From the sequence record OM386665.1: DNA of 64,000 nt. One strand, given 5' to 3'. How positions within the stretch are numbered: position 1 is the stretch's first letter; each line of letters starts with the position of its first letter. Shown here one piece after another: positions 3,490-40,120 of the stretch. The translations under genes and the position numbers were made by a program. The DNA comes from Escherichia phage vB_EcoM_ESCO56. The notes below the pieces were generated by a model, which was not told the DNA's origin, made no database searches, and saw only the letters and a program-made list of their open reading frames with translations.

Positions 3490-3495
3490 ATAGAA

Positions 3496-3696
3496 TTATT
3501 CAGAGTCTGTCGCAGTCTCTTCTTTCTTAACTTCGAACTTTGCATCAACAGCATCAAGAAGTGCATCCATAGATGCTTCTTTAATATCAATACCTGTTGC
3601 TACAGATAATCTATCTGCAATTGCCATGATAGTGTTCTGCATAAATTCTAGCTTTTTATTAGCTTCATAAAGTTCTTTATAAACGTTCTCGCTCAT
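3496..3696 (-). CDS. hypothetical small protein (66 aa)
   Basis: Track ORF 3496..3771 trimmed to internal ATG (MSENVYKELYE...) preceded by GGAGA 7 nt upstream; immediately upstream of terminase. Confidence 0.5.
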   Translation of the reverse strand: MSENVYKELYEANKKLEFMQNTIMAIADRLSVATGIDIKEASMDALLDAVDAKFEVKKEETATDSE

Positions 3697-3918
3697 TATG
3701 TTTTCTCCAAATGATAAATCTTGTTTCCCCTTAAAAAAGACGGCACGGAGACCGTCAAGGAGAAACCACAATGTACGTCAGAGACATACTGTATAAGTCT
3801 TCCTATAAAGTATAACTCTGTAAAAAAGCCCTGTCTAAAAATACTCTTCGGTAGCGAAAGGAAGAATACTTATAGCAGGGCATTATTATTATTTTAATTG
3901 AGAGAGAGTAAAATAACT

Positions 3919-3994
3919 TGGAGAATCCGAAGGGACTTGAACCCTTATAAACCTGTTTTGCAGACAGGCACATATCCATTTCTGTCACGGATTC
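3919..3994 (-). tRNA. tRNA-Cys (anticodon GCA)
   Basis: Hand-folded: acceptor GAATCCG/CGGATTC, anticodon loop CTGCAAA, T-arm AAGGG-TTCAAGT-CCCTT, discriminator U, encoded CCA. Confidence 0.8.
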
Positions 3995-3999
3995 AAAAT

Positions 4000-4092
4000 T
4001 GGAGGAAGATACCAGACTTGAACTGGTACACCGATTTCTCAGCTACTGGCAGTTTAGCAAACTGCTCCCTTACCTTTTAGGGTTAATCTTCC
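4000..4092 (-). tRNA. tRNA-Ser (anticodon GCU), class II with long variable arm
   Basis: Acceptor GGAAGAT/ATCTTCC, 3-bp D-stem, anticodon stem GCAGT/ACTGC with loop TTGCTAA, about 21-nt variable arm, T-loop TTCAAGT, encoded CCA. Confidence 0.7.
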
Positions 4093-4093
4093 A

Positions 4094-4828
4094 TTATCTT
4101 TGTAATGCGCTCTTCATTTCTGGTGTTGCAATAGTATCAATCACACCAGTTTTACAAGCATCATCAAACCAGTCTGGTAAGATACCTGCTAAGAACCCAT
4201 TGATATTCGTTTTAAGGTACTCTGCAATAAGGGCAGCTTCTTCTTCAATCATCTGCACAACTTCATCTGCATAAGCTGTAATCTTTGAGATACCTTCATT
4301 AATCTTACTAACAGCCTGATTAGCTAAATCAGAAATAGTCTCAAGACCCTCATCAATAGCGTCTTGTAAGTCACTTAACACACCGTTAACACTGTCTAGT
4401 GTGCTGTTAATCATGTCAATAGCTTGCTGACCATACTCTGTAGCAACACCCATAATACCACTAAATGGTGTACAACCAACTTGTTCTCCTGCTGCACCCA
4501 TAACATTGGAGTATCCCTTTGCTACCTGCATACGTGATGAAAACTCATCAATAGACTTTTGACCGTAGTCTGTTAGGGTCTTAGTAGTTGCTGTAGTGCT
4601 TGTAAGGCTTGTTGTAAAACTGTTTAGAAGGACTGTTGTAAGTCCAGCAGCAACAAGCTTCTCCTTCATTGTAGGGTCTGTTACAGAGCTAATAGAGCTT
4701 ACAAGTGATGTAGAGGCAGCTACGGTTCCACCGAGAACTGCTGCACCAGTAATAAGTGGGTTAGAAAACCCTCTACCGGTTTTTAAGAGATTAAAAATCT
4801 CCTTACCTTGTTCTGTCATCTCTTTCAT
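4094..4828 (-). CDS. hypothetical protein (Ser/Thr-rich, coiled-coil C-terminus)
   Basis: Track ORF 4094..4876 overlaps the tRNA at 4845-4923; trimmed to ATG at 4828 (MKEMTEQ...) with AAAGGTG RBS. Confidence 0.55.
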   Translation of the reverse strand: MKEMTEQGKEIFNLLKTGRGFSNPLITGAAVLGGTVAASTSLVSSISSVTDPTMKEKLVAAGLTTVLLNSFTTSLTSTTATTKTLTDYGQKSIDEFSSRMQVAKGYSNVMGAAGEQVGCTPFSGIMGVATEYGQQAIDMINSTLDSVNGVLSDLQDAIDEGLETISDLANQAVSKINEGISKITAYADEVVQMIEEEAALIAEYLKTNINGFLAGILPDWFDDACKTGVIDTIATPEMKSALQR

Positions 4829-4844
4829 TAAGCACCTTTGAAAT

Positions 4845-4923
4845 TGGTACTCCATATCGGATTCGAACCGATACATAACACAGATTTTAAGTCTGGCCTC
4901 TCTGCCAATTGGAGTAATGGAGC
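4845..4923 (-). tRNA. tRNA with anticodon UAA (Leu-decoding) but class-I length
   Basis: Acceptor GCTCCAT/ATGGAGT, Leu-like D-arm (3-bp stem, loop CAATTGGCAGA), anticodon loop CTTAAAA, short variable loop, T-arm ATCGG-TTCGAAT-CCGAT, A73, CCA. Confidence 0.65.
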
Positions 4924-4925
4924 AT

Positions 4926-5001
4926 TGGCGGGGGATGTTGGAATTGAACCAACTTCTTCGATTTCAAAGACCGAGGTTTTAACCTTGTAAACTAATCCCC
5001 T
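4926..5001 (-). tRNA. tRNA-Gln (anticodon UUG)
   Basis: Anticodon stem TCGGT/ATCGA with loop CTTTGAA, T-arm GTTGG-TTCAATT-CCAAC, discriminator G; 1:72 apparently unpaired. Confidence 0.75.
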
Positions 5002-5009
5002 TTAAATCT

Positions 5010-5567
5010 TTACTTTCTCAGTGGATGAATAAAGAATGCCAACATAACTCTTTCCCTTGAGAATGCTCTTTCTTCTGGGACAACGCTTTTTAGTTTCCAT
5101 CCAATATAAATTCTCCAGTAAAACTGTTTACCAAAGATTTTAATTGATGGGATAAAAGCGAATAATCCCCAAGCATTGCTATTCCACATTAGGAGATAAC
5201 CAGTCTGATTATCTTCAGGGTCAGAACTTACGTTGATATTACCTTTCCACTTAGTAACATCTTTTACATCTCTTCCTAATACATGGTAAGAGAAGTTATA
5301 AGCTTTGTTTCTCCAGAGCCATCCAACTCTCTGCATGTAGACACCCAGCTTACCAATCTCTCTAATCTTAGCCCAGCGTTTGACGTGGCCTTCATCACCA
5401 TCAATCGGGTTGTCATAGGTCTCCATCCATCTGAATCCAAAAGGTAGATGTCCTTTCTTCTCGCTGTAGAATGGAACCACGAAAGGTGCTAAGATGACTG
5501 CTAGGGTTGCTGCAAATGGTTCTAGTAAAGCTAGGAAAATCCATGAAGCATACTTCAAATATCTCAT
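5010..5567 (-). CDS. hypothetical protein (hydrophobic N-terminus, probable membrane protein)
   Basis: 185 aa ORF with AAGAGG RBS 9 nt upstream of ATG at 5567; N-terminal hydrophobic stretch WIFLALLEPFAATLAVILAPFVVPF. Confidence 0.6.
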   Translation of the reverse strand: MRYLKYASWIFLALLEPFAATLAVILAPFVVPFYSEKKGHLPFGFRWMETYDNPIDGDEGHVKRWAKIREIGKLGVYMQRVGWLWRNKAYNFSYHVLGRDVKDVTKWKGNINVSSDPEDNQTGYLLMWNSNAWGLFAFIPSIKIFGKQFYWRIYIGWKLKSVVPEERAFSRERVMLAFFIHPLRK

Positions 5568-5586
5568 CTAAATAGCCTCTTAAGAT

Positions 5587-5664
5587 TGGTGTTCCAAGAC
5601 GGATTCGAACCGTCACTAATACAAGGTTTGAGCTTGCATCCTCTGCCAATTGGGATACTGGAAC
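5587..5664 (-). tRNA. tRNA with anticodon CAA (Leu-decoding) but class-I length
   Basis: Acceptor GTTCCAG/TTGGAAC, D-arm TCC-CAATTGGCAGA-GGA, anticodon stem GCAAG/CTTGT with loop CTCAAAC, T-arm GACGG-TTCGAAT-CCGTC, A73, CCA. Confidence 0.65.
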
Positions 5665-5665
5665 A

Positions 5666-5740
5666 TGGTACTCACTAAAGGACTTGAACCTTTTTCTTCA
5701 TCTTGTAAGGGTGATGTTTTACCATATAAACTAAGCGAGT
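5666..5740 (-). tRNA. tRNA-Val (anticodon UAC)
   Basis: Acceptor ACTCGCT/AGTGAGT, D-stem GTTT/AAAC, anticodon loop CTTACAA, T-arm AAAGG-TTCAAGT-CCTTT, A73, CCA. Confidence 0.75.
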
Positions 5741-5835
5741 GTAGAAGAGGTCTGAAGTTGTGCCGCTAACTCAACTCCGTGGAATTTGTTACGGTCTTCA
5801 GTTGACACCAGCGGTCTTTCACTTGACCTCTGAAT

Positions 5836-5912
5836 TGGTGCTGCTCACAGGACTTGAACCTGCATTTCCATCCTTACAAGGGATGTGTAATAGCCAATTA
5901 TACGAAAGCAGC
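5836..5912 (-). tRNA. tRNA-Thr (anticodon UGU)
   Basis: Acceptor GCTGCTT/GAGCAGC, anticodon stem CATCC/GGATG with loop CTTGTAA, T-loop TTCAAGT, A73, CCA. Confidence 0.75.
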
Positions 5913-5919
5913 ATTAATT

Positions 5920-5996
5920 TGGTACACCTAGAGAGATTCGAACTCACACTGAGCAGATTCTAAGTCTGCTGCCTCTACCAGTTGGGCTATAGGTGC
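5920..5996 (-). tRNA. tRNA with anticodon UAG (Leu-decoding) but class-I length
   Basis: Acceptor GCACCTA/TAGGTGT, D-arm GCC-CAACTGGTAGA-GGC, anticodon stem GCAGA/TCTGC with loop CTTAGAA, T-loop TTCGAAT, A73, CCA. Confidence 0.65.
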
Positions 5997-6074
5997 ATTA
6001 AATCTTTTTAGAGAACTTCTAAGAACCTAAGCAACAAGGTTCCACAACAAGCTGTAATAACCTTAGAAGCCCTC

Positions 6075-6250
6075 TAAAAAGACCTAAAAAGGTCTTTGCA
6101 TAGTCTTGTTTAATCCGGTGACTAGAACCTTTGGAGAGCTTGATATTATCTCTTCTCCGTGACACCTGCTAGGTGCTTTATGAGTGTGTACGACAATACA
6201 CGCGGGATACCAAAGCAACACCCTAATGAAGCTTGGCTTTAAATCTTATT
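6075..6250 (-). ncRNA. candidate small structured RNA between tRNA genes, ending in an intrinsic terminator
   Basis: No tRNA fold found. Minus-sense sequence carries hairpins GTGTA-TTGTCG-TACAC, CACC-TAGCA-GGTG, GGAGA..TCTCC, then AGACC-TTTTT-AGGTCT followed by TTTT (6075-6096). 5' end not defined. Confidence 0.3.
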
Positions 6251-6253
6251 AGG

Positions 6254-6341
6254 CGGTAAGTAAAGGAGTCGAACCCTCACCGTATCTCTACAGTGGCAAC
6301 TGTTTTCAAGACAGTTTGGCTACCATTAGCCGCTACCTACC
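6254..6341 (-). tRNA. tRNA-Ser (anticodon UGA), class II
   Basis: Acceptor GGTAGGT/ACTTACC, anticodon stem ACTGT/ACAGT with loop CTTGAAA, about 20-nt variable arm, T-loop TTCGACT, G73; CCA not fully encoded. Confidence 0.7.
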
Positions 6342-6354
6342 CCTAATAAGACTT

Positions 6355-6437
6355 TGGCATGGGACGGAGGAGTTGAACCCCTTTGAAACGGTGTTGGAAG
6401 CCGTTGCTCATGCCTTAGAGTCTTAACATCGTCCCAT
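6355..6437 (-). tRNA. tRNA candidate, anticodon probably CCA (Trp); D region about 7 nt longer than canonical
   Basis: Acceptor ATGGGAC/GTCCCAT, T-loop TTCAACT, G73, CCA; anticodon register inferred from distance to T-loop (loop TTCCAAC); D-arm could not be folded canonically. Confidence 0.4.
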
Positions 6438-6580
6438 ACTATAATTCGAAGCTTACCGTATTATCTCAACACTGTAAAGCCCCTTCTCAGATTATTTACA
6501 TGTTCTGGAAAACATGAGATACAGACCACCTCCCTACAGGAAGACCCGCTTAGGTCGTCTAAGTAATCTGCTAACTAAAT

Positions 6581-6662
6581 TGGTCGAGGCGGCAGGACTC
6601 GAACCCGCATACTCCACTTACTCGGTTAACGTCTGTTTAGAAGACAGATGAGATACGCCCCG
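6581..6662 (-). tRNA. tRNA-like element (acceptor and T-arm present, anticodon-like loop CUUCUAA; no D-arm resolved)
   Basis: Acceptor CGGGGCG/CGCCTCG with one G-U, T-arm GCGGG-TTCGAGT-CCTGC, A73, CCA; only internal hairpin is TCTGT-CTTCTAA-ACAGA placed too far 5' for a canonical tRNA. Confidence 0.3.
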
Positions 6663-6910
6663 TAATTATCTTTAAAGACTCTCTTAGAAAGCCCTTAAAG
6701 ATGCCCACCTTATTAATCATACCGTGGGCTAGTACGCCAAATTCTTTGATGAGGGATTGGAAGACCTCACTGGTGTTTAGCCTATCAAGCTACTGCCAGA
6801 AAAACATTGTCGTTTGCATTTATTTTAAATTTGCAAAATAGACGCTACGCAACGAAAACTAAGGGTACTATAAAGTGGTCACATCACTATTCTGCTACAC
6901 TTCCATTAAA

Positions 6911-7050
6911 TTATCTTTGTAGATAAGCTACCCAGACTTGCTTAAGGTCTGTAGCGATGTGACTTTTTGGGTTTAAATCTAGAATTTACCCTTTCACCCT
7001 TTGTGGTCGCATACTCACAGGTAAGCTTAATAACTTATCTACAAAGATAA
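6911..7050. repeat. long inverted repeat (17-bp perfect arms, about 106-bp spacer) in tRNA-array spacer
   Basis: TTATCTTTGTAGATAAG at 6911-6927 is the exact reverse complement of CTTATCTACAAAGATAA at 7034-7050. Confidence 0.8.
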
Positions 7051-7098
7051 TTACCAGACCGTTGTTTATCATCTTAACTAGATATCTCATAAAGTGTT

Positions 7099-7186
7099 TG
7101 GTGTGCCGTGTAGGAGTCGAACCTACCGAGTCTCAATGACAAGGGATTTACAGTCCCCACCGCTACCATCTACGGGATAACGACAC
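7099..7186 (-). tRNA. tRNA-Tyr (anticodon GUA), class II
   Basis: Acceptor GTGTCGT/ACGGCAC, anticodon stem GGGGA/TCCCT with loop CTGTAAA, about 14-nt variable arm, T-arm GTAGG-TTCGACT-CCTAC, A73, CCA. Confidence 0.8.
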
Positions 7187-7255
7187 ATTTAATTTCTATT
7201 CAGGCTAAGGACTTGCACCTTACAAATCGGTGAGCAATCGCTTCTCTCCTGAATT

Positions 7256-7332
7256 TGGCGGTTAGTCAGGGATTCGAACCCTGTGCCATTCGCTTAACAG
7301 GCGACCGCACATACCTTATGTGCTTCCTAACC
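7256..7332 (-). tRNA. tRNA-Asn (anticodon GUU)
   Basis: D-stem GCAC/GTGC, anticodon loop CTGTTAA, T-arm CAGGG-TTCGAAT-CCCTG, G73, CCA. Confidence 0.8.
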
Positions 7333-7416
7333 ATGTTTAGTATTACCAGACCGTATCTTTCAATTTTTCCGCTAAAAATTTAATAAACATTGCTGTAAAC
7401 GGTCTTCTGTAAAATT

Positions 7417-7493
7417 TGGAGGCGGGTGCAGGAGTCGAACCTGCCGATACCATGCTAATGAGACATGTGAGACGCCCTTTCTCTATACCCGCA
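7417..7493 (-). tRNA. tRNA with anticodon CAU (Met, fMet or Ile2)
   Basis: Anticodon stem CATGT/GCATG with loop CTCATTA (position 37 is U, unusual), T-arm GCAGG-TTCGACT-CCTGC, CCA. Confidence 0.65.
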
Positions 7494-7623
7494 ATTCTTA
7501 ATGACCAGACCAAATCTCTTCTTTGTCCGATTTACCTTCAGATGAATAAGATTAAGTTTGCTGTAATTGGTCTTCTGTCAAAACTGGCGTTCCAGAAGGG
7601 ATTTGTCTACTGGAACATTAATT

Positions 7624-7700
7624 TGGTCTCTGTTGGAGGACTTGAACCTCCGGCCTTACCGCCCCAAACGGAACGCTCTACCAAGCTGAGCTAAACAGAG
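7624..7700 (-). tRNA. tRNA-Pro (anticodon UGG)
   Basis: Acceptor CTCTGTT/AACAGAG, D-stem GCTC/GAGC, anticodon loop TTTGGGG (G37), T-arm GGAGG-TTCAAGT-CCTCC, A73, CCA. Confidence 0.8.
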
Positions 7701-24368: not shown

Positions 24369-24546
24369 TAAAAAATTTTAAAAATATTTTCAGGAATTGC
24401 CAGAGAGGAACGGGTGCGCGCGAATACCACAAAACAGAACACAAATCAAGAATTATTTTTCAATCCGCTACAAATTTTTCTGTTGACTTTTCTTTTTGGA
24501 TGTGGTAGCCTTGTGAGAAATGGCGACATCCCCGCCTAGACCCGCT

Positions 24547-24726
24547 TACCTGCACAATTCTAAAATGATTTTTCTTGCCCGACCTGATTTTTCTCTGCAC
24601 GTTTTGAAAATGAAAAAGCTCTTTGGAGATTACCTGCACAGTTTGAAAATGAATTTTCTCTTTGGAGTTCAAAATTTTCTCTACAGATTTCTCTATAGAA
24701 ATATACCTGCACAATTCTGAAATGAA
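24547..24726. repeat. three direct repeats of about 22 bp TACCTGCACA(A/G)TT(C/T)T(A/G)AAATGA
   Basis: Copies at 24547-24567, 24631-24652, 24705-24726; also duplicated TTGAAAATGAA..CTCTTTGGAG near 24603 and 24644. Confidence 0.8.
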
Positions 24727-24798
24727 AAAGCCCTCCTTACCTGAAAAATTTACCAGATAAGAAAGGCTTAGTCTATTGTGAATATTCTACAGAGTTTC

Positions 24799-25584
24799 TT
24801 AGTTCTTTGCGTCTAAGAAGGTAACTTCTGGTGAAGAGAAGATTGCCTCGATATCCTCATCAGTTCTTGCATAAATGTAAGCATCGGCATCACTACCAAA
24901 TGTCACAGCAATTCTGTGATTGCTCTTCGACAGGTGGGTAACTAGAGCGTTACTTAGAGACATCTTTTCAACCGGAGGGTTACTTTGATGTATCTTACCT
25001 TTTCTTCGTCTGAAGAGGGTAACTGCGTTATCTGTGAACACAACTACACCTGCAAAGTATTCTGGTTCACAGTAGTTTTTCCAACCTGAGTGTAACTTGT
25101 TGTACATCTCTGTCTCGTAGACATACAGATAAACATCTACGCTCTTCATAACCTGATTGATGATAACTGTGACAGCTTGAGGGTCAAGTCCACCGATACC
25201 TGCACCAATCATAGGTAAACCAACTTTCTTCAACTGGTTAACTTCACAGTATCTGTTAAGTTGCTTCAAAGATGACTCTAAAGCACTGTATCGGGCGTCT
25301 TTACCAGTCTTAAGCTGAGTGTAAAGGTTAGCTATACGACCTTGTTTTAAACGTGCTACAGAGAAATTACCCAGTAAATTTTCACAGGGTTTGTGACCTA
25401 TACCACCTGCATAGATGTAAACTTCTGTATCGGTCTCATATGCTTTTGGGTAAAGTTTAGAAATCTTGTCAGCGATACCTGCACCCATTAAATTCATACA
25501 GTTGCAACCGTGACCAATGATGTCAAACTTACCTTTATCAAAGGCGTCAAAGATATCACCATTGATGATTTTTACAATACCCAT
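24799..25584 (-). CDS. macro-domain protein (ADP-ribose binding/hydrolase fold) with C-terminal domain of unknown function
   Basis: 261 aa; N-terminal IINGDIFD, GHGCNCMNLMGAGIA and GLPMIGAGIGGLDP match macro-domain glycine-rich loops; about 110-aa C-terminal extension unassigned. Confidence 0.65.
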   Translation of the reverse strand: MGIVKIINGDIFDAFDKGKFDIIGHGCNCMNLMGAGIADKISKLYPKAYETDTEVYIYAGGIGHKPCENLLGNFSVARLKQGRIANLYTQLKTGKDARYSALESSLKQLNRYCEVNQLKKVGLPMIGAGIGGLDPQAVTVIINQVMKSVDVYLYVYETEMYNKLHSGWKNYCEPEYFAGVVVFTDNAVTLFRRRKGKIHQSNPPVEKMSLSNALVTHLSKSNHRIAVTFGSDADAYIYARTDEDIEAIFSSPEVTFLDAKN

Positions 25585-25785
25585 TTAACATCTCTCCCAA
25601 GATTCTTTATCTCCTGAAGGCTTTACACGTTGCCCTTCGTGGTCTACCCAGATGCACCCACATCCTTCACAGATTACTGGCATTGCATAACCAGCTTTAA
25701 AGTCATCTTCAGTGATAAGACCTTTTAAGTCACCTGTATCACGTCCAAACATTTCGATAGAACAGTCTTTGCAGAAGTCAGCCAT
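25585..25785 (-). CDS. hypothetical Cys-rich small protein (possible zinc ribbon)
   Basis: 66 aa with CKDC...CEGCGC. Confidence 0.5.
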   Translation of the reverse strand: MADFCKDCSIEMFGRDTGDLKGLITEDDFKAGYAMPVICEGCGCIWVDHEGQRVKPSGDKESWERC

Positions 25786-27259: not shown

Positions 27260-28150
27260 TTAGTTGTGGATAATTACTTCGCTAATACCTTTGCTTCCCT
27301 GTGCATGTATTGTGTATGAATGATTAACCTCTGTCAAGTGAAAATTTTCAGGAATTAGGTTTGACCATCCGTCCCACTGAGAGTTTGACATCAGCACCTT
27401 AGAGCCTAACTCCCCCCAATCAGATATATCTTTGCACAATTTCACAGACATTGAAACGTCAAACTTTGCGCCATATTTCTGGTTGGTGTTTATATATGGT
27501 GGGTCACAGTAAATGACCGTCCCTTCTCCATGCTTTATGTCAACCATGTCATAAGGGTGACTACTGAGGACAACCCTCTCATCAGTGATGAAGTTATAGA
27601 ACTCCTTTAGTGCTTCTTCAGTCTTTGTAAAGAAAACTTCTTCTTCTATCAAATAGCCGCAAGGTGTTGCATAGTGCCCTTTCATCTCTTTAGTTGTCTG
27701 CCATACACCACCAAAACTTAGTTTCTGAAGGAAAAACTGTCTGGCATAGTATCTGTAGTCATAGACACCAGATTCACCAAGTGTGAGAAGCTCATCTCTT
27801 ACACTGTAGTACATCTTATAACGTAATCGGTTATGGCGTTGCCCCTTCATAGCGTACTCTTCCTGCATAGGTAATGCTAAGTACCTTTTTGCCAAGTACC
27901 AAAACTCTTCCATGAATTTGTCGTAATCATCCCTGAAGGTTATGTAAAGTTCTATGATATGTTTGTTTATTTCATTAATAAATATTTTTGCATCTGGGTA
28001 CTTATCATAAGCCCAGATAGCTACTGAGCCGCCACCTGAAAACAGGTCATAGAAGTTTTCACAGTTGTCTGGAAAGACACCTAAACGCTCATATTCTTTC
28101 AGTATTCTTGTTTTACCACCAAGATACTTAAACATTGGTTTCATTAGCAC
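27260..28150 (-). CDS. dam: DNA adenine methyltransferase (Dam-like N6-adenine MTase)
   Basis: 296 aa; FKYLGGK, DLFSGGGSV (SAM-binding FxGxG) and DPPY catalytic motif. Confidence 0.8.
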   Translation of the reverse strand: MLMKPMFKYLGGKTRILKEYERLGVFPDNCENFYDLFSGGGSVAIWAYDKYPDAKIFINEINKHIIELYITFRDDYDKFMEEFWYLAKRYLALPMQEEYAMKGQRHNRLRYKMYYSVRDELLTLGESGVYDYRYYARQFFLQKLSFGGVWQTTKEMKGHYATPCGYLIEEEVFFTKTEEALKEFYNFITDERVVLSSHPYDMVDIKHGEGTVIYCDPPYINTNQKYGAKFDVSMSVKLCKDISDWGELGSKVLMSNSQWDGWSNLIPENFHLTEVNHSYTIHAQGSKGISEVIIHN

Positions 28151-28669: not shown

Positions 28670-29365
28670 TCAATGTTTAACTAACATGGTTTTGATGTGT
28701 GGAAGGATTCTGTTCACCTTCTGCACATTCTTCTCTGTATCTTCTATAAAACATACTATATTAAAGTAAGGCAGAATGCAAGACTGAATCATCCTCACTT
28801 TCAAACTTTCTGCACTTATAGAGTTAGTCCCAAAACCACGCATAAAAAGCATGTAGTCATGCTCTATGTTATGCCTTAAAAACATCTCAGTAGGTATTCT
28901 CTGAGACTCACCTCTGGCTGTCAAGAGTCCAACAGCAGCATGATTAGCAATTGCATCAATGATATTGAAAACATACGTTGGTTTTGCTCTTACAGAGTCA
29001 AGAAGATTAGTGTACTGTGAAAATGACCCATCAGTCAACTCCGTTGAACAATCTTCGTGATTAAAATTTGTAAGAACGCCATCAATATCTGCTAAGATGA
29101 GATTCCCTTTTTCTACAAGGTCTTTATTGACTATGACTAAGCTATCACGGCTTACACCTATAGTTTGTCCAGTCTCTTTATCTACAACATTCACAATTGG
29201 CTCTGATGTGTGGAACTCTTCAAGTGAACATACAACTTCTCTTGCTGTGTCTTCAAAATCCCTGCACTGTTCTGGAGTCCATGCAAAGGAATCAATACCT
29301 AACTCATGAGGATGTAAGTCATAAGCATGACACAAGACTTCATCAGACTTTCTTAATTTTTTCAT
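28670..29365 (-). CDS. HAD-superfamily phosphatase (possible 5'-deoxynucleotidase or polynucleotide 3'-phosphatase)
   Basis: 231 aa; LILADIDGVLTNF matches HAD motif I (DxDGx). Confidence 0.5.
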   Translation of the reverse strand: MKKLRKSDEVLCHAYDLHPHELGIDSFAWTPEQCRDFEDTAREVVCSLEEFHTSEPIVNVVDKETGQTIGVSRDSLVIVNKDLVEKGNLILADIDGVLTNFNHEDCSTELTDGSFSQYTNLLDSVRAKPTYVFNIIDAIANHAAVGLLTARGESQRIPTEMFLRHNIEHDYMLFMRGFGTNSISAESLKVRMIQSCILPYFNIVCFIEDTEKNVQKVNRILPHIKTMLVKH

Positions 29366-29980: not shown

Positions 29981-30241
29981 TTACATTACGTAGAGATTCC
30001 CAAAACCTGTAGGTTTCCCATTACGAAAGTTACGACGCTTAACAGGTAACTTAGTGATAGTCTTCGTCTTCTCTAAGTCTATAAAGGTCTGTGTAAAATC
30101 CGATGGGAGGTATTTTTTACCAAACTTTGCAGAGAGGTACTCTGCTACTTCGTATTGTGTAGCTGCCCCCAGATACTTGAGAGCAACTCTTACCATCATC
30201 TTTTTAACTTGCATATCAGTCCTTATAAGCTCTAAATGCAA
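29981..30241 (-). CDS. hypothetical protein
   Basis: 86 aa ORF. Confidence 0.5.
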   Translation of the reverse strand: MHLELIRTDMQVKKMMVRVALKYLGAATQYEVAEYLSAKFGKKYLPSDFTQTFIDLEKTKTITKLPVKRRNFRNGKPTGFGNLYVM

Positions 30242-31055
30242 CGTCAGCTTGTGACATTACATAACCTTGAAACACACCACCATTCTGGTCATACTGGGTC
30301 TTCATGGCATCTAAGAAGCTGCTTACAGACCCATCATCATCACGGTAGTCCAACCAGAACTTTGTAGCCTTTTCAGGGTTTTCTTTGAAGCTCTTAAGCA
30401 TTGCTGCCATAATTGGAGCGGAATACTTTTTACGCAGTTCACATTTCTGCTTAACACCGTTTACAGTCTTCTCTTTGTACTTATCCATCTCATCCTTATC
30501 AATGCCAAGTGCATCAATAAGTTTAAGCTCTTCTTGATAGAGTACAAATGCTTCATCAAGGCATCCACGGAGACCTAATAAGGCCCACACACCAGCACCA
30601 GTAAATTTCTTGGTGAACGCTGTCTGTGGCTTATAACCAGAGCGTAGTATTGCAGTTGTAATTTGGTCACCATTCGTAGCTCGTGAGTCCAGTGAGTTTT
30701 CTTGGTCGTAGAGGAAATCTACTTCTTCCTGTGAATTAACAGCAAACAGGGTCACATAGACAAGGCCGTTCTTGGGAGCACCTAATTTACCATTCTTCCA
30801 GTTCTCTACACGAGCATGAGAATCAATGTTGATAACTTCTCCATTGAACAGTACACCCGTAACACGGGAACGTAAATCCACCTCACGAAGTTCTTCATTA
30901 AGGTAAGGTTTAGCAATTCGTCGTTCAATGCTACGGTTTGCTGAGTAAGGCTTTGCACAGTTAGCCCAATCCATGTACCCCATGAAGAAGGAAGCTACAC
31001 CACAAACGAAATCAATCTTGCAAGGTGTTTTGCTCTGGAACTCTTTGAATTTCAT
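30216..31055 (-). CDS. hypothetical protein
   Basis: 279 aa ORF, no motif recognised. Confidence 0.6.
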   Translation of the reverse strand: MKFKEFQSKTPCKIDFVCGVASFFMGYMDWANCAKPYSANRSIERRIAKPYLNEELREVDLRSRVTGVLFNGEVINIDSHARVENWKNGKLGAPKNGLVYVTLFAVNSQEEVDFLYDQENSLDSRATNGDQITTAILRSGYKPQTAFTKKFTGAGVWALLGLRGCLDEAFVLYQEELKLIDALGIDKDEMDKYKEKTVNGVKQKCELRKKYSAPIMAAMLKSFKENPEKATKFWLDYRDDDGSVSSFLDAMKTQYDQNGGVFQGYVMSQADVAFRAYKD

Positions 31056-31116: not shown

Positions 31117-32016
31117 TTAATGCAAGTGTTTTTCTAAAGTATTTATAATTTCTTGTGAGTTGATAGAGCCTGCATGACTCAGTGCAAAACCATCTCTCAA
31201 ATCACTAAACCATTCTTGTTTGATTGCTGAGTAAAGACCTTCTACGTGTGGTTCGATAAACTGTTTCACTGACACCTTATCTTTATCTGGTTCAAAAACC
31301 TTCACAGTGCCAGCCTTACGACCATGTGTAATAATCGTGAACAAGTCTTTTCCATCCAGTTTACCTAAAACACCTACTGGCTGTTCTTTACCATCAATCT
31401 TGTGGCATGGTGGCCTATATAGTGTGAATTTCTCACGCTTATAGACTCTTACGCCATCAACTATCGCAGGGGCAATCTTACAAATTTTATCTGTCCGTTT
31501 TTGTCTCTTCCAGATTTGGAAGTTACAGCGTAGTGATGATTCTTTTGCTGAGTAGGTAACTCCATCAATCCTTTCAAAATGAAGGTTAGGTAGTTCTACT
31601 TCGGCAATGCAGGTGTACTCCCTGCTAAGTCTGCTAAGATTCTTCTTCCCAAAGTTAATAGGGACTAAGAAGCAAATGTAGTCTGGATTCATTGTAGCAG
31701 CCTTGTTAAAGAACTTTGTAGACAGACTGTTTGCCTTACCGAATGGAGGGTTAGTAACAATCGCAAAAGGCTTATCTGGAATCTCTAAGTCATCTTTCAG
31801 GAAGTCTCTTGTACTAACATCTTCAGAGTCTGGTTCGATGTCGTATAGTACAACATCTTTACAAACCCTCTTAAAAGAGTCTTTCCATCTTCCGTCACCT
31901 GCACAGGGGTCTATAATACACGAAATAGAGCCTTTAAAGACCCTTTGTAGCTCATCTTCACACACTCTTATTACTTCGTCTGGTGTGTAGTATTTATCAA
32001 GTTCTGCTTTAGCCAT
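31117..32016 (-). CDS. DNA methyltransferase (amino-MTase, NPPF catalytic motif)
   Basis: 299 aa; YYTP, DPCAGDG (SAM binding) and NPPF motifs. Confidence 0.7.
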   Translation of the reverse strand: MAKAELDKYYTPDEVIRVCEDELQRVFKGSISCIIDPCAGDGRWKDSFKRVCKDVVLYDIEPDSEDVSTRDFLKDDLEIPDKPFAIVTNPPFGKANSLSTKFFNKAATMNPDYICFLVPINFGKKNLSRLSREYTCIAEVELPNLHFERIDGVTYSAKESSLRCNFQIWKRQKRTDKICKIAPAIVDGVRVYKREKFTLYRPPCHKIDGKEQPVGVLGKLDGKDLFTIITHGRKAGTVKVFEPDKDKVSVKQFIEPHVEGLYSAIKQEWFSDLRDGFALSHAGSINSQEIINTLEKHLH

Positions 32017-35618: not shown

Positions 35619-35646
35619 AATATTCCCCTCTTAGTTTACTGTTAAA

Positions 35647-35823
35647 TTACTTATTAAACATTTTACCAGAGCCGCCACACATAGGGCAACAACCTGCTCT
35701 TGTATAACCTTCTCCATTACAGTAATCACACTTCTTGTGCTCTGCATAGTAATTGCAAAGAAGGTAAACAAAGATTGCTATGCTACCAAGTGACAGTAAA
35801 ATTTCTATCCAATATACTTGCAT
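35647..35823 (-). CDS. small membrane-anchored protein with DnaJ-type zinc finger repeats (CxxCxGxG x2)
   Basis: 58 aa, not in ORF track: MQVYWIEILLSLGSIAIFVYLLCNYYAEHKKCDYCNGEGYTRAGCCPMCGGSGKMFNK. Confidence 0.5.
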   Translation of the reverse strand: MQVYWIEILLSLGSIAIFVYLLCNYYAEHKKCDYCNGEGYTRAGCCPMCGGSGKMFNK

Positions 35824-36140
35824 GACTCACCTCTCATATTTTTGTAAAGGGTAAAGCTTCTGTCATGGACGATACTTGTAGATACTGAAAAGTTACTTTC
35901 AAGCATCTGTTTGTTTGGATTGTAGAAGCTTTCTTTAAACTCATCAAGAGCAAATTGGTGATTGTCTGGGAGACCTTTTACACAAACCTTTATTGTGATT
36001 ACTGCTGCAATCTTGTCAGTCAGTTCTTCTTTAGCTGCTACTAAAAACTTGTTAAGAAACTTTTTACCATCTTCAGGCTTCTTAATGTTTTCCCAACGTT
36101 CTTCTAGGACAACGCTAATGTTCATTTCTTTGATTCTCAT
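35805..36140 (-). CDS. hypothetical protein
   Basis: 111 aa ORF. Confidence 0.5.
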   Translation of the reverse strand: MRIKEMNISVVLEERWENIKKPEDGKKFLNKFLVAAKEELTDKIAAVITIKVCVKGLPDNHQFALDEFKESFYNPNKQMLESNFSVSTSIVHDRSFTLYKNMRGESCKYIG

Positions 36141-36157
36141 AGTCTTCTCCAGAAATT

Positions 36158-36178
36158 AAAAAGGCTCCCATAGGAGCC
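36158..36178 (-). terminator. intrinsic terminator
   Basis: Minus strand GGCTCC-TATG-GGAGCC followed by TTTTT. Confidence 0.7.
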
Positions 36179-36198
36179 TCTTATCATATACTTTTAAA

Positions 36199-36366
36199 GC
36201 TGCTTGTCAATATTGTTTCGAATATCGCCAAGAGTTGTGTAACCGAACTGCTTAGAGTCACTAAAGACTAAACGTAAAGCACAAGCTGGGTGGTCAAGTA
36301 CATCTGCAAAACTCTGGAATCCATAGCCATCTACAGCTTTCAGCTTATCACCATCCCACATAGGTG
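36199..36366 (-). CDS. hypothetical small protein (55 aa)
   Basis: Below ORF-track length cutoff: MWDGDKLKAVDGYGFQSFADVLDHPACALRLVFSDSKQFGYTTLGDIRNNIDKQL. Confidence 0.35.
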
Positions 36367-36405
36367 TACGCCACCAAAGGCAGATTTCTTAACACCACTA
36401 TCTGT

Positions 36406-36726
36406 TTACTGAGCCACTTTCAAGATGCTTGTGAATGAAATCTCACTCTCATCCATAAACTCTTTTGCTTCTCCAGTAACTTTTACAAAGTTATCTAGGC
36501 AGATAATCTTCTTATCTTTCTTGCTATAGGTTAGCTTAACCTTTTCAATATCTTTCTTAGAGCTTTCCTCTTCATTAAAGAGCTTTACAGCTTCTTTGAA
36601 TGGGAGGTATGAGCCATCATCGTCGCTAATAAAACCTGTACCACAATAGTAGAAGTTATATTCTTTAGCCATAAACTGGCACAGTACGAAAATCTGTAAT
36701 TTGCGAGTGTTATAAACTTTGCTCAT
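36406..36726 (-). CDS. hypothetical protein
   Basis: 106 aa ORF. Confidence 0.5.
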   Translation of the reverse strand: MSKVYNTRKLQIFVLCQFMAKEYNFYYCGTGFISDDDGSYLPFKEAVKLFNEEESSKKDIEKVKLTYSKKDKKIICLDNFVKVTGEAKEFMDESEISFTSILKVAQ

Positions 36727-36728
36727 GA

Positions 36729-36986
36729 TTATTTAGCCTTCTTATTACGTTTATGGTTACGAGCTTTCTTAGCTGCTCGTTTAATAGCTGCTGCACCAGA
36801 CGGACGGTGGGCTTGTTTCTTACCACCTTTATCACGGCCTACATAGGTACTTTTCATAAACTCATTAGCCAGCTTCTCCTCCATCTTAAAGTTCTGCATA
36901 AGATGAGTCACATCAACGCCAGTGAGCATACCTAATGAAGCTAGTGCTGCTTTTACTTTTGATTTAAAGCTATTCCAGATTCCCAT
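36729..36986 (-). CDS. hypothetical basic protein
   Basis: 85 aa; Lys/Arg-rich C-terminus. Confidence 0.5.
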   Translation of the reverse strand: MGIWNSFKSKVKAALASLGMLTGVDVTHLMQNFKMEEKLANEFMKSTYVGRDKGGKKQAHRPSGAAAIKRAAKKARNHKRNKKAK

Positions 36987-37109
36987 TTCATATCTCTCTC
37001 AATCTTTTCACAAATGTTTTAAGTTCTCCTTCAGTGACACCAATGGTTAAGTTTGTTCTGTAGAACATTGTAAAGTGGTCTTTACCGATAACCTACTTTA
37101 CAATGAGAT

Positions 37110-37595
37110 TTACTCTGCTCTCCACTGACAATCACCTTGCCACCCATACTCTTTTCTCCAGAGAATTTGGTTATCAGAACCACGATATGGTTTAGTTGTT
37201 GGTTTAGATAAATCATACTTGCCATCAATCACCACGTCAATGTATTTCATCACATCAAGGTGAATTTTTTCGTGTAGTTGAAAACCTGTCCAAAGCCATA
37301 TAGACTTCTCTGGATAAATAGTTTTAATACGTTTACATATATTGGTAACCTCTTGAATATTTCTATCATCCAGAGGTTCTCCACCAAGTATTGACAAACC
37401 ACTGACAGCATTATCACCCATTAGCTGGATGATTCCATAGAGGTTTGCATAAGTAAACTCTTTACCAGCATTAAACTTCCAAGACTCCCTGTTAAAGCAG
37501 CCTTCGCAGTGATGCTTACAACCAGCTACGAAGAGGCTTACACGAACCCCTTCACCATTAGCTGTATCAAATGGTCTAATATCCATGTAATTCAT
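37110..37595 (-). CDS. nrdG: anaerobic ribonucleotide reductase activating protein (radical SAM)
   Basis: 161 aa; CKHHCEGC radical-SAM cysteine cluster; adjacent to nrdD. Confidence 0.85.
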   Translation of the reverse strand: MNYMDIRPFDTANGEGVRVSLFVAGCKHHCEGCFNRESWKFNAGKEFTYANLYGIIQLMGDNAVSGLSILGGEPLDDRNIQEVTNICKRIKTIYPEKSIWLWTGFQLHEKIHLDVMKYIDVVIDGKYDLSKPTTKPYRGSDNQILWRKEYGWQGDCQWRAE

Positions 37596-37659: not shown

Positions 37660-38607
37660 TTACATAGAAACCCTATCCTTAATTTCTGCCATCTTAGCGT
37701 CATTCATTCGAGACTGACCTTTAATTTTTGTGAATGACAAGTACCCGCACACCCTGTTAATCACAGAGATATCGTGTGAATGACAAACCTCACATTCTTC
37801 AACATCAGCCTTTGGTCTGTTACCACAATGTTCACAGATTGCTAAGTCAAAGTTAAGTCCCTGATAGAAACCTTTCAACATCCCCCTTGTAATACAACTT
37901 TTAAGTGCTGATAAGTTTTCTGGATTAGCTACCCTTACATACTGGATTCTGCCGCCTCTACAGATATGGAAGAAGGGTTCTTCTAAGTCCTGCTTCTCAA
38001 ATGGTGTAATGTCTGCTGCAACATTCATATGGAAACTGTTTGTAAAGTATTCCTTGTCAGAAACACCTTTGATAACACCAAACATATCTCTGAACTGTTT
38101 TAGCTGAGTCCCACAAAGTGATTCTGCTGGAGTGCCATAGACTGCATATAAGAAGCCATCTTCATTTTTAAACTCTTCAGTTTTCATGTTGATGTATGCC
38201 AGAACATCATATGCAAAACTACAGCTTCCAACTTCATGGAGTCGTTTACCCTCAGCAAGAACAGACAACTCATCAAGAGCAGTAACCCCAAAAGAGGCTG
38301 TGAAAGACTTCACGATATCCCAACCAACCTTATCAGTAGGCTTCTTAGTCCCTTTGTACAGACCACCTTGCGTAAATGCAAGAGGGTTAGAACTTGCTGG
38401 CATATTAGCAATCATTTCGTAACGTTTCTTGTGGAAGCTGCGAATCATCTCTAGGTGCTTATCAAGCTCTTTCCAGAAATCTAAACCATTCTCTTTGGTG
38501 TACTGGTAAATCATTGGTAAGTTCAAAGATACAGCACCAATGTTAGCACGACCTACATAAAACTCTTCACCATGTTCGGTGTGGTATGGTGATAAAAATG
38601 CTCTACA
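37660..38607 (-). CDS. nrdD: anaerobic ribonucleotide reductase NrdD, exon 2
   Basis: C-terminal part with glycyl-radical motif RVCGYL and Cys cluster CEHCG...CEVC; reading frame extends upstream of the track start to the proposed 3' splice site. Confidence 0.75.
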   Translation of the reverse strand, partial: CRAFLSPYHTEHGEEFYVGRANIGAVSLNLPMIYQYTKENGLDFWKELDKHLEMIRSFHKKRYEMIANMPASSNPLAFTQGGLYKGTKKPTDKVGWDIVKSFTASFGVTALDELSVLAEGKRLHEVGSCSFAYDVLAYINMKTEEFKNEDGFLYAVYGTPAESLCGTQLKQFRDMFGVIKGVSDKEYFTNSFHMNVAADITPFEKQDLEEPFFHICRGGRIQYVRVANPENLSALKSCITRGMLKGFYQGLNFDLAICEHCGNRPKADVEECEVCHSHDISVINRVCGYLSFTKIKGQSRMNDAKMAEIKDRVSM

Positions 38608-38923
38608 CTTGTTGTTCAGGTAAGTTCGCTAAGCTTACCCCGCTTTATTCAAGCTGCTTACTGTCGCCAGTAAGTCCAGACTATATCTTCTACTTATTTC
38701 TAAGTAGCGTACCATTTCGAGTCGCTTGACCCTACACCGCTACATTCATCACGGTTAGTCGTTCGGCATTTAGATGTACTCAAACTCATATTCGAAGTTA
38801 TTCGGTATGTAAGACTCCTACGTTGTATATTTTCTTACATCGTACATCATTTAGCACAGGATTGTCTACATCTGTAGAGTTTCCCTGTTTAGGCACGTTT
38901 TAGATGAGCTATAGAGCTTGTTA
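38608..38923 (-). ncRNA. group I self-splicing intron in nrdD (ORF-less)
   Basis: Separates two nrdD halves in different frames; contains P-like AACAGGGAAACTC, Q-like AATCCTGTGC, R-like GAACGACTAA and S-like AAGATATAGTC (R/S form GACUA/UAGUC P7); U before 5' splice site, G before proposed 3' splice site. Splice sites approximate. Confidence 0.7.
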
Positions 38924-40120
38924 ACCCATCGGTGAAATAACCTTACCAGAACGCTCAAAAGCCTCTGCTACAGCACCATGACCAGATACACTTAAGAAAT
39001 CTGGATACATTGCTTTAGAGCAACACTCAATGGCTTTACTGTACAGGTGTCCTTGACAGATATCCTCATCGTGTCTCTTCTGGTCATAAATATAAACCAG
39101 TTTAGGGAATACAACAGGCTTCTTGCTCTTACCTTGTCCATTCATACGAACATCTAGGAGAGTGCTCGCAATCATGTATTGCAGTCGGTTATCTTCATTA
39201 GACATATCTGAGTCAAGTAACCCGAATGTCAAAGTTGTGAATGCAAAATCCCCACGGCTACAAGGTACAGTATTTAGTTTCATTTCAAGTGACTGGAAAC
39301 CTTGAGTCAGTTCAATCTGTAGCTGCTCCATGACATAATTGTGGTAATGTTCTTTAGGAATACCATAAGATGCTGCTTTCTCAGCATGATAGCGTAGAGA
39401 CTTCTTAGCATACGGCACAAGTACCTTATCAATCTCTGCTAAAGTAAAACCACCAAATTGCTGTGCAGTTGCTGAAAGAACTACGTCACCAATAACCTGT
39501 AAGGCCGACAGTACAGACTTCGGTTCACAATATTCAATGCCAGACATTTCAAAGCCACCTTTCAGGACTTTACCAATGTCAAACAGACAACAGTTGATAC
39601 CACCAAAAATTAGGTCTCTTAAATCATGGATATAGATAAACCCTTTTTCAATGGCTTCAAGTTCCTCTGGTGTTAAATGGTACTGTTTAAAGATTTCTTT
39701 AGTCAGATAACCACGAATAATTGAGCCTTTTGTAGAAATTAAACTGCTGTCAAAGTTAGCATTCTCTCTGTCACCTAAGAAGAGTGTATCTTTGGTCTTC
39801 TGGTAAAGTTCATCCCAATTTTGAGCAACTTCTTTACGGTAATTTCTATATGTTGAGTAAGACTCATAAATCTCGTGGTTGACTTCTGCCAAAGCACCCT
39901 CAACAATACTGTGAATATCATTTACTGAAATGAGTAAATTATTCTGCTTAGTGGATTTTACCAGAACCCTCATAAATGCTGACTCAAGAGCTTGGGTAAC
40001 ATCTGGTGGAAGCTCTTTATAACCAACTCTGTTAGCTGACTTTGTGACTGCTGTTAAAACTTTTTTGATATCAGGTTCTTCGAGTGAGCCATTCTTTTTA
40101 ATAATCTGTACTTTGTTCAT
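38924..40120 (-). CDS. nrdD: anaerobic ribonucleotide reductase NrdD, exon 1
   Basis: 399 aa N-terminal part beginning with ATP-cone-like MNKVQIIKKNGSLEEPDIKKV; spliced product predicted about 714 aa. Confidence 0.8.

Follow-up and report, generated by a model that had tools for sequence, protein, structure and literature searches.

The 64,000-nt stretch of Escherichia phage vB_EcoM_ESCO56 analyzed here (sequence record OM386665.1; hereafter the window) belongs to a Felixounavirus of the Felix O1 group and carries, at 24799..25584 on the minus strand, the gene of a macrodomain protein, which we call the macro gene and the macro protein. We found that the macro protein belongs to PHROG 335, the Poa1p-like phage macro clade of Tk.4 and Adpp, and that its C-terminal domain occurs only in these Ounavirinae proteins and has no sequence or fold relative. 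It is best read as a two-domain anti-defense hydrolase that would act at the C1'' position of ADP-ribose, and our tentative preference is that, like Tk.4 (AdfM) of phage T4, it erases the marks that host DarT2 leaves on phage DNA. The clade itself is already known; what is new is the lineage-specific orphan domain and a gene that lies away from the pathway it may serve. The parts of the gene are as follows.

24799..25584, minus strand: complete coding sequence of the macro gene, from the open reading frame (ORF) call, the PHROG match and orthology to bas63_0095
25117..25584, minus strand: macrodomain, residues 1-156, of the Poa1p-like phage clade with T4 Tk.4 and Adpp, from Pfam, the PDB profile search, AlphaFold2 and Foldseek, alignment and tree
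25510..25512, minus strand: codon of His25 in the HGCNC motif, equivalent to Poa1p His23 and Gary Adpp His24, invariant in the family
25501..25503, minus strand: codon of Asn28, equivalent to Asn23 of PhiKZ AdfM, invariant in the family
25315..25317, minus strand: codon of Gln90 in NLYTQ, at the position of DarG Lys80 and TARG1 Lys84, invariant in the family
24802..25116, minus strand: linker helix (residues 158-167) and orphan C-terminal domain, residues 157-261 in all, from AlphaFold2, the lack of relatives and the substitution rates

The ORF is complete, running from ATG to TAA and encoding 261 amino acids plus the stop; an earlier sequence-only reading had already drawn this ORF with an N-terminal macrodomain, leaving its strand unstated. 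The product is 97% identical to bas63_0095 ("putative phosphatase") of phage Bas63/JohannRWettstein and 97-99% identical to the proteins of relatives, and the gene is intact in this genome. Databases usually annotate it as "phosphatase", and some GenBank records as "O-acetyl-ADP-ribose deacetylase". Over 3.2 kb around the gene, identity to Escherichia phage ESCO50 is 98.6%, and 194 phage records span 80% or more of this stretch.

The N-terminal part was confirmed as a macrodomain, far beyond chance. Pfam Macro (PF01661) scored 32.6 bits against a cut-off of 22, with residues 25-141 spanning profile positions 2-117 of 118, and PHROG 335 ("phosphatase") matched over the full length of the protein with an E value of 1e-112; the same PHROG takes in T4-like Tk.4 (E 1e-71) and PhiKZ gp104/AdfM (E 8e-43). 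An alignment of 31 family members served both as the family profile and as the input for AlphaFold2. Against the PDB, this profile matched TARG1 (E 4e-17), Mycobacterium tuberculosis DarG (5e-16), SCO6735 (3e-15) and yeast Poa1p (4e-15). The AlphaFold2 model, with a predicted local distance difference test score (pLDDT) of 91 and a predicted template modeling score (pTM) of 0.89, has the three-layer alpha/beta/alpha fold with two glycine-rich ADP-ribose-binding loops. With residues 1-156, Foldseek (E 2e-10) gave template modeling (TM) scores of 0.83-0.87 to TARG1, 0.80 to Thermus aquaticus DarG and 0.76-0.77 to Poa1p, and none of the Foldseek matches reached past the macrodomain into the C-terminal part. 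The glycine-rich loops that the sequence-only reading had pointed out are M33-G-A-G-I-A38 and I126-G-A-G-I-G-G-L-D134, and both are conserved in the family.

That reading had named a loss of catalytic or binding residues as something that would refute it, and these residues are in place. H25, N28, T89, Q90, G127 and G129, among others, are invariant over the 31 family members, and with its binding and catalytic loops intact the macrodomain is predicted to be catalytically competent. Loop 1, H25-G-C-N28-C...M-G-A-G, reads IGHGCNC..MGAGIA here against LIHSCNC..WGGGIA in Poa1p. In HMMER and MAFFT alignments, Gln90 fills the column of DarG Lys80 and TARG1 Lys84, and TARG1 Asp125 aligns with Gly131, so that both residues of the TARG1 dyad (Lys84/Asp125) are absent. 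The macro protein has instead the motifs of its clade: HxCNC (as HGCNC), [T/G]Q (as NLYTQ) and G(A/C)G(I/L)xGG (as GAGIGG). The HxCNC / xQ / GxGxxGG signature is common to the macro protein, T4 Tk.4 and the phage macro proteins encoded next to NARP1, in which the Q motif appears as NLYGQ, NVYGQ or NAYTQ and loop 2 as GxGLxGGDW.

Pairwise comparisons place the protein among these phage relatives. It is 39% identical to the actual T4 Tk.4 over 134 residues, with HGCNC, NLYTQ and IGAGIG common to both; it scores 34% and 83 bits with T4-like Tk.4 and 27% and 52 bits with Adpp of Vibrio phage Gary, and Tk.4 and Gary Adpp score 39% and 85 bits with each other. In tblastn, it reached 81 bits with the NARP1-associated protein of Pseudomonas phage PPSC2 and 83-84 bits with T4-like Tk.4 proteins. 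A bootstrapped neighbor-joining tree recovered solid clades for the Tk.4-like proteins (100), the two-domain Ounavirinae proteins (100) and the NARP1-associated groups (98-100), while DarG and PhiKZ gp104 formed a separate clade with 100% bootstrap.

A DarG identity was ruled out. The catalytic Lys is replaced by Gln90, and the DarG models match only their macro part: the NCBIfam equivalog NF048014 scored 48.7 bits against a cut-off of 250 (E 6e-13), matching only model positions 3-153 of 338, and the PADLOC DarG model (E 2e-13) matched only positions 14-147 of 329. As far as these models show, the protein lacks the DarT-binding domain, and no darT adjoins the macro gene, whose neighbors are phage genes.

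The second half of the protein is what sets this family apart. For residues 157-261, AlphaFold2 predicts one helix, then six beta strands and, at the end, a short helix. The pLDDT of this part is ~90 in the full-length model and 76 when it is folded alone, which together with the pTM of 0.89 suggests that it packs against the macrodomain. The sequence-only reading had left this domain unassigned, and so it stays after our searches. There was no Pfam, NCBIfam or PADLOC match to it in any of 18 family members, a word-indexed homologue search with the domain alone returned no match, and in a fold search of BFVD the sole match was the orthologue of phage SUSP2. Besides the two-domain family itself, a profile search of 1.84 billion representative proteins yielded no more than fragments of it, a truncated copy and repetitive surface proteins, which we take as spurious. 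The more distant members of the family all have the gene in the same syntenic position, on contigs with rIIA, rIIB, Dam, lysin and kinase genes; in distant syntenic metagenomic contigs, a D12 methyltransferase lies between rIIB and lysin.

The C-terminal part is a genuine folded domain on which purifying selection acts, though in relaxed form. Within Felixounavirus, the ratio of nonsynonymous to synonymous substitution rates (dN/dS) is 0.18-0.22 for this domain against 0.05-0.06 for the macrodomain, and identity to the Mooglevirus orthologue is 50% against 76%. In Erwinia phage vEam_W_25 (Kolesnikvirus), the orthologue at 2998-3780 has 260 amino acids and a macrodomain of 43% identity, and its tail of the same length (~100 residues) shows no match to the Felixounavirus-type C-terminal profile. 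As the length is kept and the profile match is not, this tail has either been replaced or drifted too far to be recognized. A conserved enzyme with a fast-changing appendage would be expected of a module that meets a variable partner. Two candidate counterparts of this part were considered and rejected. As for the DarT-binding domain of DarG, the full-length PADLOC and NCBIfam DarG models, on which this comparison rests, do not match the C-terminal part, the 120 DarG proteins listed being all of 250 amino acids or fewer and mostly macro-only. The aRES-binding inhibitor aRad1 shows no BLASTP or profile similarity to it, either as aRad1a or as aRad1b.

The macro gene is the last of a long leftward block, which runs from the nrd genes through NARP1 (in relatives), rIIA, rIIB, lysin, a HAD-type polynucleotide kinase, spanins and four small genes to the macro gene and a terminator. 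The sequence-only reading had argued from its position beside Dam and a second methyltransferase, and this argument proved weak: Dam is 1.7 kb and six genes away, and both methyltransferases are accessory, being absent from this place in Bas63 and ESCO50. The informative context is rather NARP1, which lies upstream in relatives and is deleted here. In Bas63, in which NARP1 was found experimentally, genes 79 (Adps) and 80 (Namat) lie 15 genes and 7.8 kb upstream of the macro gene on the same strand. The features of the block that matter here are listed below.

35619-37110: region of the NARP1 deletion, with the Namat remnant at 36197-36405 (minus strand) and a 55-amino-acid ORF at 36194..36361
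28670..29365: HAD-type polynucleotide kinase/phosphatase gene, in the same block as the macro gene
27260..28150, minus strand: Dam-type (D12 class) methyltransferase, accessory relative to Bas63 and ESCO50
31117..32016, minus strand: second methyltransferase-like gene, accessory relative to Bas63 and ESCO50
30216-31055, minus strand: 279-amino-acid ORF of unknown function, extra relative to Bas63 and ESCO50

In this genome, Adps is gone and Namat is reduced to its last ~70 codons (36197..36405, minus strand), which adjoin a 106-amino-acid small endonuclease-like ORF at 36406..36726, where phage ESCO45 annotates an HNH endonuclease. About 5.5 kb of ESCO50 and Bas63 is missing at the deletion, and ESCO45 is the only other phage with this junction in one piece. 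Across the phage record collection, in which we counted proteins with more than 60% identity to the Felixounavirus Adps or macro fusion, Adps is present in 253 records and the macro fusion in 243, so that Ounavirinae nearly always carry both NARP1 and the fusion; the Erwinia-infecting Kolesnikviruses also have both. Among Escherichia records, 993 carry the macro clade against 178 with Adps, which means that a NARP1-independent role for the clade must exist.

On a host with DarTG2, tk.4 was the sole significant hit of a T4 transposon library, a clean knock-out sensitized the phage, and the authors gave it the name AdfM (bioRxiv 10.1101/2025.11.20.689424). A DarG-like protein of PhiKZ, gp104, was also named AdfM in a 2026 paper, in which it stripped DarT2-made ADP-ribose from DNA in vitro and was impaired by N23A; gp104 keeps the DarG-type "PTK" lysine, unlike the clade of the macro protein. 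The macro protein would be made from the long leftward block of replication or early-type genes, presumably early in infection. Its macrodomain would hold the ADP-ribose moiety by the two glycine-rich loops and hydrolyze the bond at ribose C1''; taking part would be His25 and Asn28 of loop 1 together with Gln90, whose loop bears the Lys in DarG and TARG1. Like T4 Tk.4, it would strip ADP-ribose from the thymidines that host DarT2 modifies on phage single-stranded DNA, and so rescue replication. Residues 157-261 may act as a targeting or partner-binding module for DNA or protein. The PHROG and motifs shared with Tk.4, the Tk.4 genetics, the partial DarG matches and the two-domain precedent of DarG, in which a macrodomain is joined to a partner-binding domain, are all consistent with erasure of DarT2 marks. 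Since NARP1 is deleted, this is also the only documented role of the clade that would still be useful in this genome. The idea in the sequence-only reading that such a gene could reverse a host defense based on ADP-ribosylation is therefore a live candidate through homology to Tk.4, and the broader anti-defense role that it proposed is now backed by tested homologues, namely T4 Tk.4 and Gary Adpp. Its other suggestion, degradation of an ADP-ribose-derived signal, found no support, as the documented small-molecule substrate of the clade is an NAD+ breakdown product and not a signal.

Several observations speak against DarT2-mark erasure. DarG Lys80 is catalytic in the T. aquaticus enzyme, where its mutation inactivates the protein (review PMC8120803), and it is Gln in the macro protein. 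For T4, the evidence is genetic, from a single preprint. Cleavage of ADP-ribosyl-DNA has yet to be demonstrated biochemically for any member of the HxCNC/Q clade, and the only biochemistry of the clade is the hydrolysis of ADPR-1''-phosphate, where ADPR is ADP-ribose. Whether the Ounavirinae proteins are sister to Tk.4 or to the NARP1-associated proteins has less than 50% support in the neighbor-joining tree. Across the family, the C-terminal domain varies in net charge and its isoelectric point ranges from 4.6 to 9.5, with no consistent basic or acidic signature of DNA binding or DNA mimicry. The NARP1 deletion is recent, with a junction found otherwise only in ESCO45, and retention of the macro gene after it therefore proves little. 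Finally, the near-universal presence of NARP1 in Ounavirinae would favor, for the lineage as a whole, a function like that of Adpp. We found no literature linking DarTG with Bas63.

Adpp is known from work on RES-domain defense proteins (aRES), which split NAD+ into nicotinamide and ADPR-1''-phosphate, a product that NARP1 is unable to use; in some phages, the NARP1 operon has gained a further gene, for the Poa1p-like macro protein Adpp (bioRxiv 10.64898/2026.01.28.702374, Sorek laboratory). In the same preprint, purified Adpp of Vibrio phage Gary converted ADPR-1''-phosphate (ADPR-1P) into ADPR, the three-gene operon overrode aRES, and H24A abolished this anti-aRES effect. It is quite possible, though we rate it below erasure of DarT2 marks, that the macro protein is mainly such an ADP-ribose-1''-phosphate phosphatase serving NARP1 in trans, and that in this genome it is a recently orphaned leftover. 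Its loop 1 is the HxCNC of Poa1p and Gary Adpp, whose essential His24 aligns with the invariant His25 (the equivalent His23 was mutated as H23A in yeast Poa1p), and the NARP1-associated macro proteins have the same Q motif and a GxGLxGGDW loop. NARP1 was discovered in Bas63 and lies on the strand of the macro gene, and aRES is found in E. coli, Klebsiella and Enterobacter (bioRxiv 10.64898/2026.01.28.702374). The macro genes counted in that preprint are those no more than two genes from NARP1, and Escherichia, Salmonella, Erwinia, Klebsiella and Citrobacter phages are all absent from its table, so that the Felixounavirus arrangement, with the macro gene far from NARP1, would have been overlooked. 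Against this, the macro gene lies outside the NARP1 operon, 15 genes away in Bas63 and in a window without Adps, rather than within two genes of Adps-Namat; its product is closer to Tk.4 (34-39%, ~80 bits) than to Gary Adpp (27%, 52 bits); NARP1-associated macro proteins have a single domain, and it is not obvious why a small-molecule phosphatase would need another 105 residues; most phages with the clade are T4-like and have no NARP1; and with Adps and most of Namat gone, the pathway cannot run here. The two functions are compatible rather than exclusive. As Tk.4 and Adpp are closely related, a broad specificity for C1'' substituents shared across the clade is plausible, and in relatives that carry NARP1, Bas63 among them, this active site probably turns ADPR-1''-phosphate into ADPR as well. 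An extended version seems unlikely to us: a dual-mode protein whose C-terminal domain docks DarT2 or aRES, or else the replisome or single-stranded DNA, so that the logic of DarG (an eraser joined to a toxin binder) evolved independently, with one active site serving both DarTG2 evasion and NARP1-dependent aRES evasion and with NARP1 of Bas63 as a split three-gene pathway.

Macrodomains can also act purely as readers, and a non-catalytic binder, which would only bind or sequester a molecule derived from ADP-ribose, such as a Thoeris-type signal, or target the C-terminal domain as a reader, would fit the missing canonical Lys of DarG and TARG1. We consider it very improbable, because the residues needed for catalysis in relatives are invariant (His25 for Adpp H24, Asn28 for PhiKZ AdfM N23), the nearest relatives that have been tested are, or act like, enzymes, and purifying selection on the macrodomain is strong (dN/dS 0.05). 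Less improbable, but still doubtful, is hydrolysis of another ADP-ribose conjugate with an anti-defense or regulatory role independent of DarT2 and aRES, such as a protein mono-ADP-ribosylated on Glu or Asp (as for TARG1 or SCO6735), O-acetyl-ADP-ribose, ADP-ribosylated RNA ends or the marks of other ADP-ribosyltransferases, of host or phage. By profile and fold, TARG1, SCO6735 (5e3b) and Poa1p are among the closest solved structures and score almost alike. SCO6735 removes Glu-linked ADP-ribose even though it has no Lys/Asp dyad, some GenBank records name the protein a deacetylase, and a HAD-type polynucleotide kinase/phosphatase shares the block of the macro gene. No tested member of the phage clade acts in this way, though, the database names are automatic transfers, and no phage ADP-ribosyltransferase is known in the lineage, although none was searched for.

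The sequence around the macro gene contains the following features, all read on the minus strand.

25592..25598: Shine-Dalgarno-like GGGAGAG, 7 nt 5' of the ATG, read from the sequence
25585..25785: upstream gene of 66 amino acids, whose stop codon abuts the macro-gene ATG
24728..24769: intrinsic-terminator-like hairpin of 17 pairs followed by a T-run, 30 nt past the macro-gene stop codon

A rho-independent terminator is annotated at the same place as this hairpin in the record of phage wV8. Past it, a non-coding gap of ~500 bp contains a ~30-nt element (TTACCTGCACA[A/G]TT[C/T][T/G]AAAATGA...) in three to four direct copies (24540-24745), which could serve the next leftward transcription unit as repeated phage promoters or as operator sites. 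The upstream 66-amino-acid product is Cys-rich (CxxC...CxxC), zinc-ribbon-like and a member of PHROG 2210, of unknown function. Felixounavirus and Mooglevirus keep it beside the macro gene (the Michonne product is 74% identical), and a distant syntenic contig has an unrelated small CxxC protein in its place; as its conservation does not extend to the farther syntenic contigs, the idea of a fixed partnership with the macro gene was rejected. Elsewhere in the window, nrdD (anaerobic ribonucleotide reductase) is split by a group I intron at 38657-38981 on the minus strand (Rfam RF00028, 53.5 bits, E 2e-11) and is therefore seen as two ORFs (38921..40120 and 37660..38526), while nrdD of ESCO50 is a single uninterrupted gene. 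Thirteen tRNA genes cluster at 3919-7700 on the minus strand (Cys, Ser x2, Leu x3, Gln, Val, Thr, Tyr, Asn, Met and Pro).

Two preprints of 2025-2026 give related phage macrodomains different jobs, the erasure of DarT2 marks and the feeding of ADPR-1''-phosphate into NAD+ reconstitution. The Felix O1-group protein is approximately equidistant from T4 Tk.4 and the Pseudomonas NARP1-associated macro proteins, and it belongs to the lineage in which NARP1 was discovered (Bas63). It is thus a handy test case for whether the Tk.4/Adpp clade is bifunctional, and for whether the share of NARP1 phages able to resist aRES is far above the 15% reported. Since Felixounaviruses serve in phage therapy and in Salmonella typing, it is of practical value to know which host defenses they can bypass. 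The C-terminal domain is folded, selected, lineage-restricted and without relatives, and a new interaction may be found there.

Among characterized systems, human TARG1/OARD1 gives the best profile match and the best fold match of the solved structures, but its catalytic dyad is missing in the macro protein, with Gln90 and Gly131 in its place. Poa1p, an ADP-ribose 1''-phosphate phosphatase (PDB 6LFQ-6LFU), resembles it nearly residue for residue in loop 1 and also in fold; it differs in that Poa1p Ser30 aligns with Leu32, in having no C-terminal domain and in being a housekeeping enzyme of eukaryotic tRNA splicing. DarG and PhiKZ gp104 share the macro fold and the loop 1 Asn, and DarG also the two-domain outline, but they form their own clade, the macro gene has no adjacent DarT, Lys80 of DarG corresponds to Gln90, and full-length DarG profiles show no relation between the C-terminal domain and the DarT-binding domain. 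Gary Adpp has a Poa1p-like macrodomain with an essential His in HxCNC, the xQ motif and the second Gly loop, and the lineage of the macro protein has NARP1 on the same strand. Adpp is nevertheless a single-domain protein encoded inside the Adps-Namat operon or at most two genes from it, whereas the macro protein has a C-terminal domain and its gene is far from NARP1 in relatives and has lost it here. T4 Tk.4/AdfM, finally, has a single domain of 155-159 amino acids without the extra 105-amino-acid C-terminal domain, stands outside the well-supported clade of Ounavirinae proteins and comes from a phage in which our searches found no NARP1-type gene, unlike the Felixounavirus lineage, which normally has NARP1; T4 is also the only phage in which the function has been examined experimentally. 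Yet both belong to PHROG 335, share 39% identity and the same motifs with Gln in place of the DarG Lys, and are encoded in the early region of virulent enterobacterial myoviruses.

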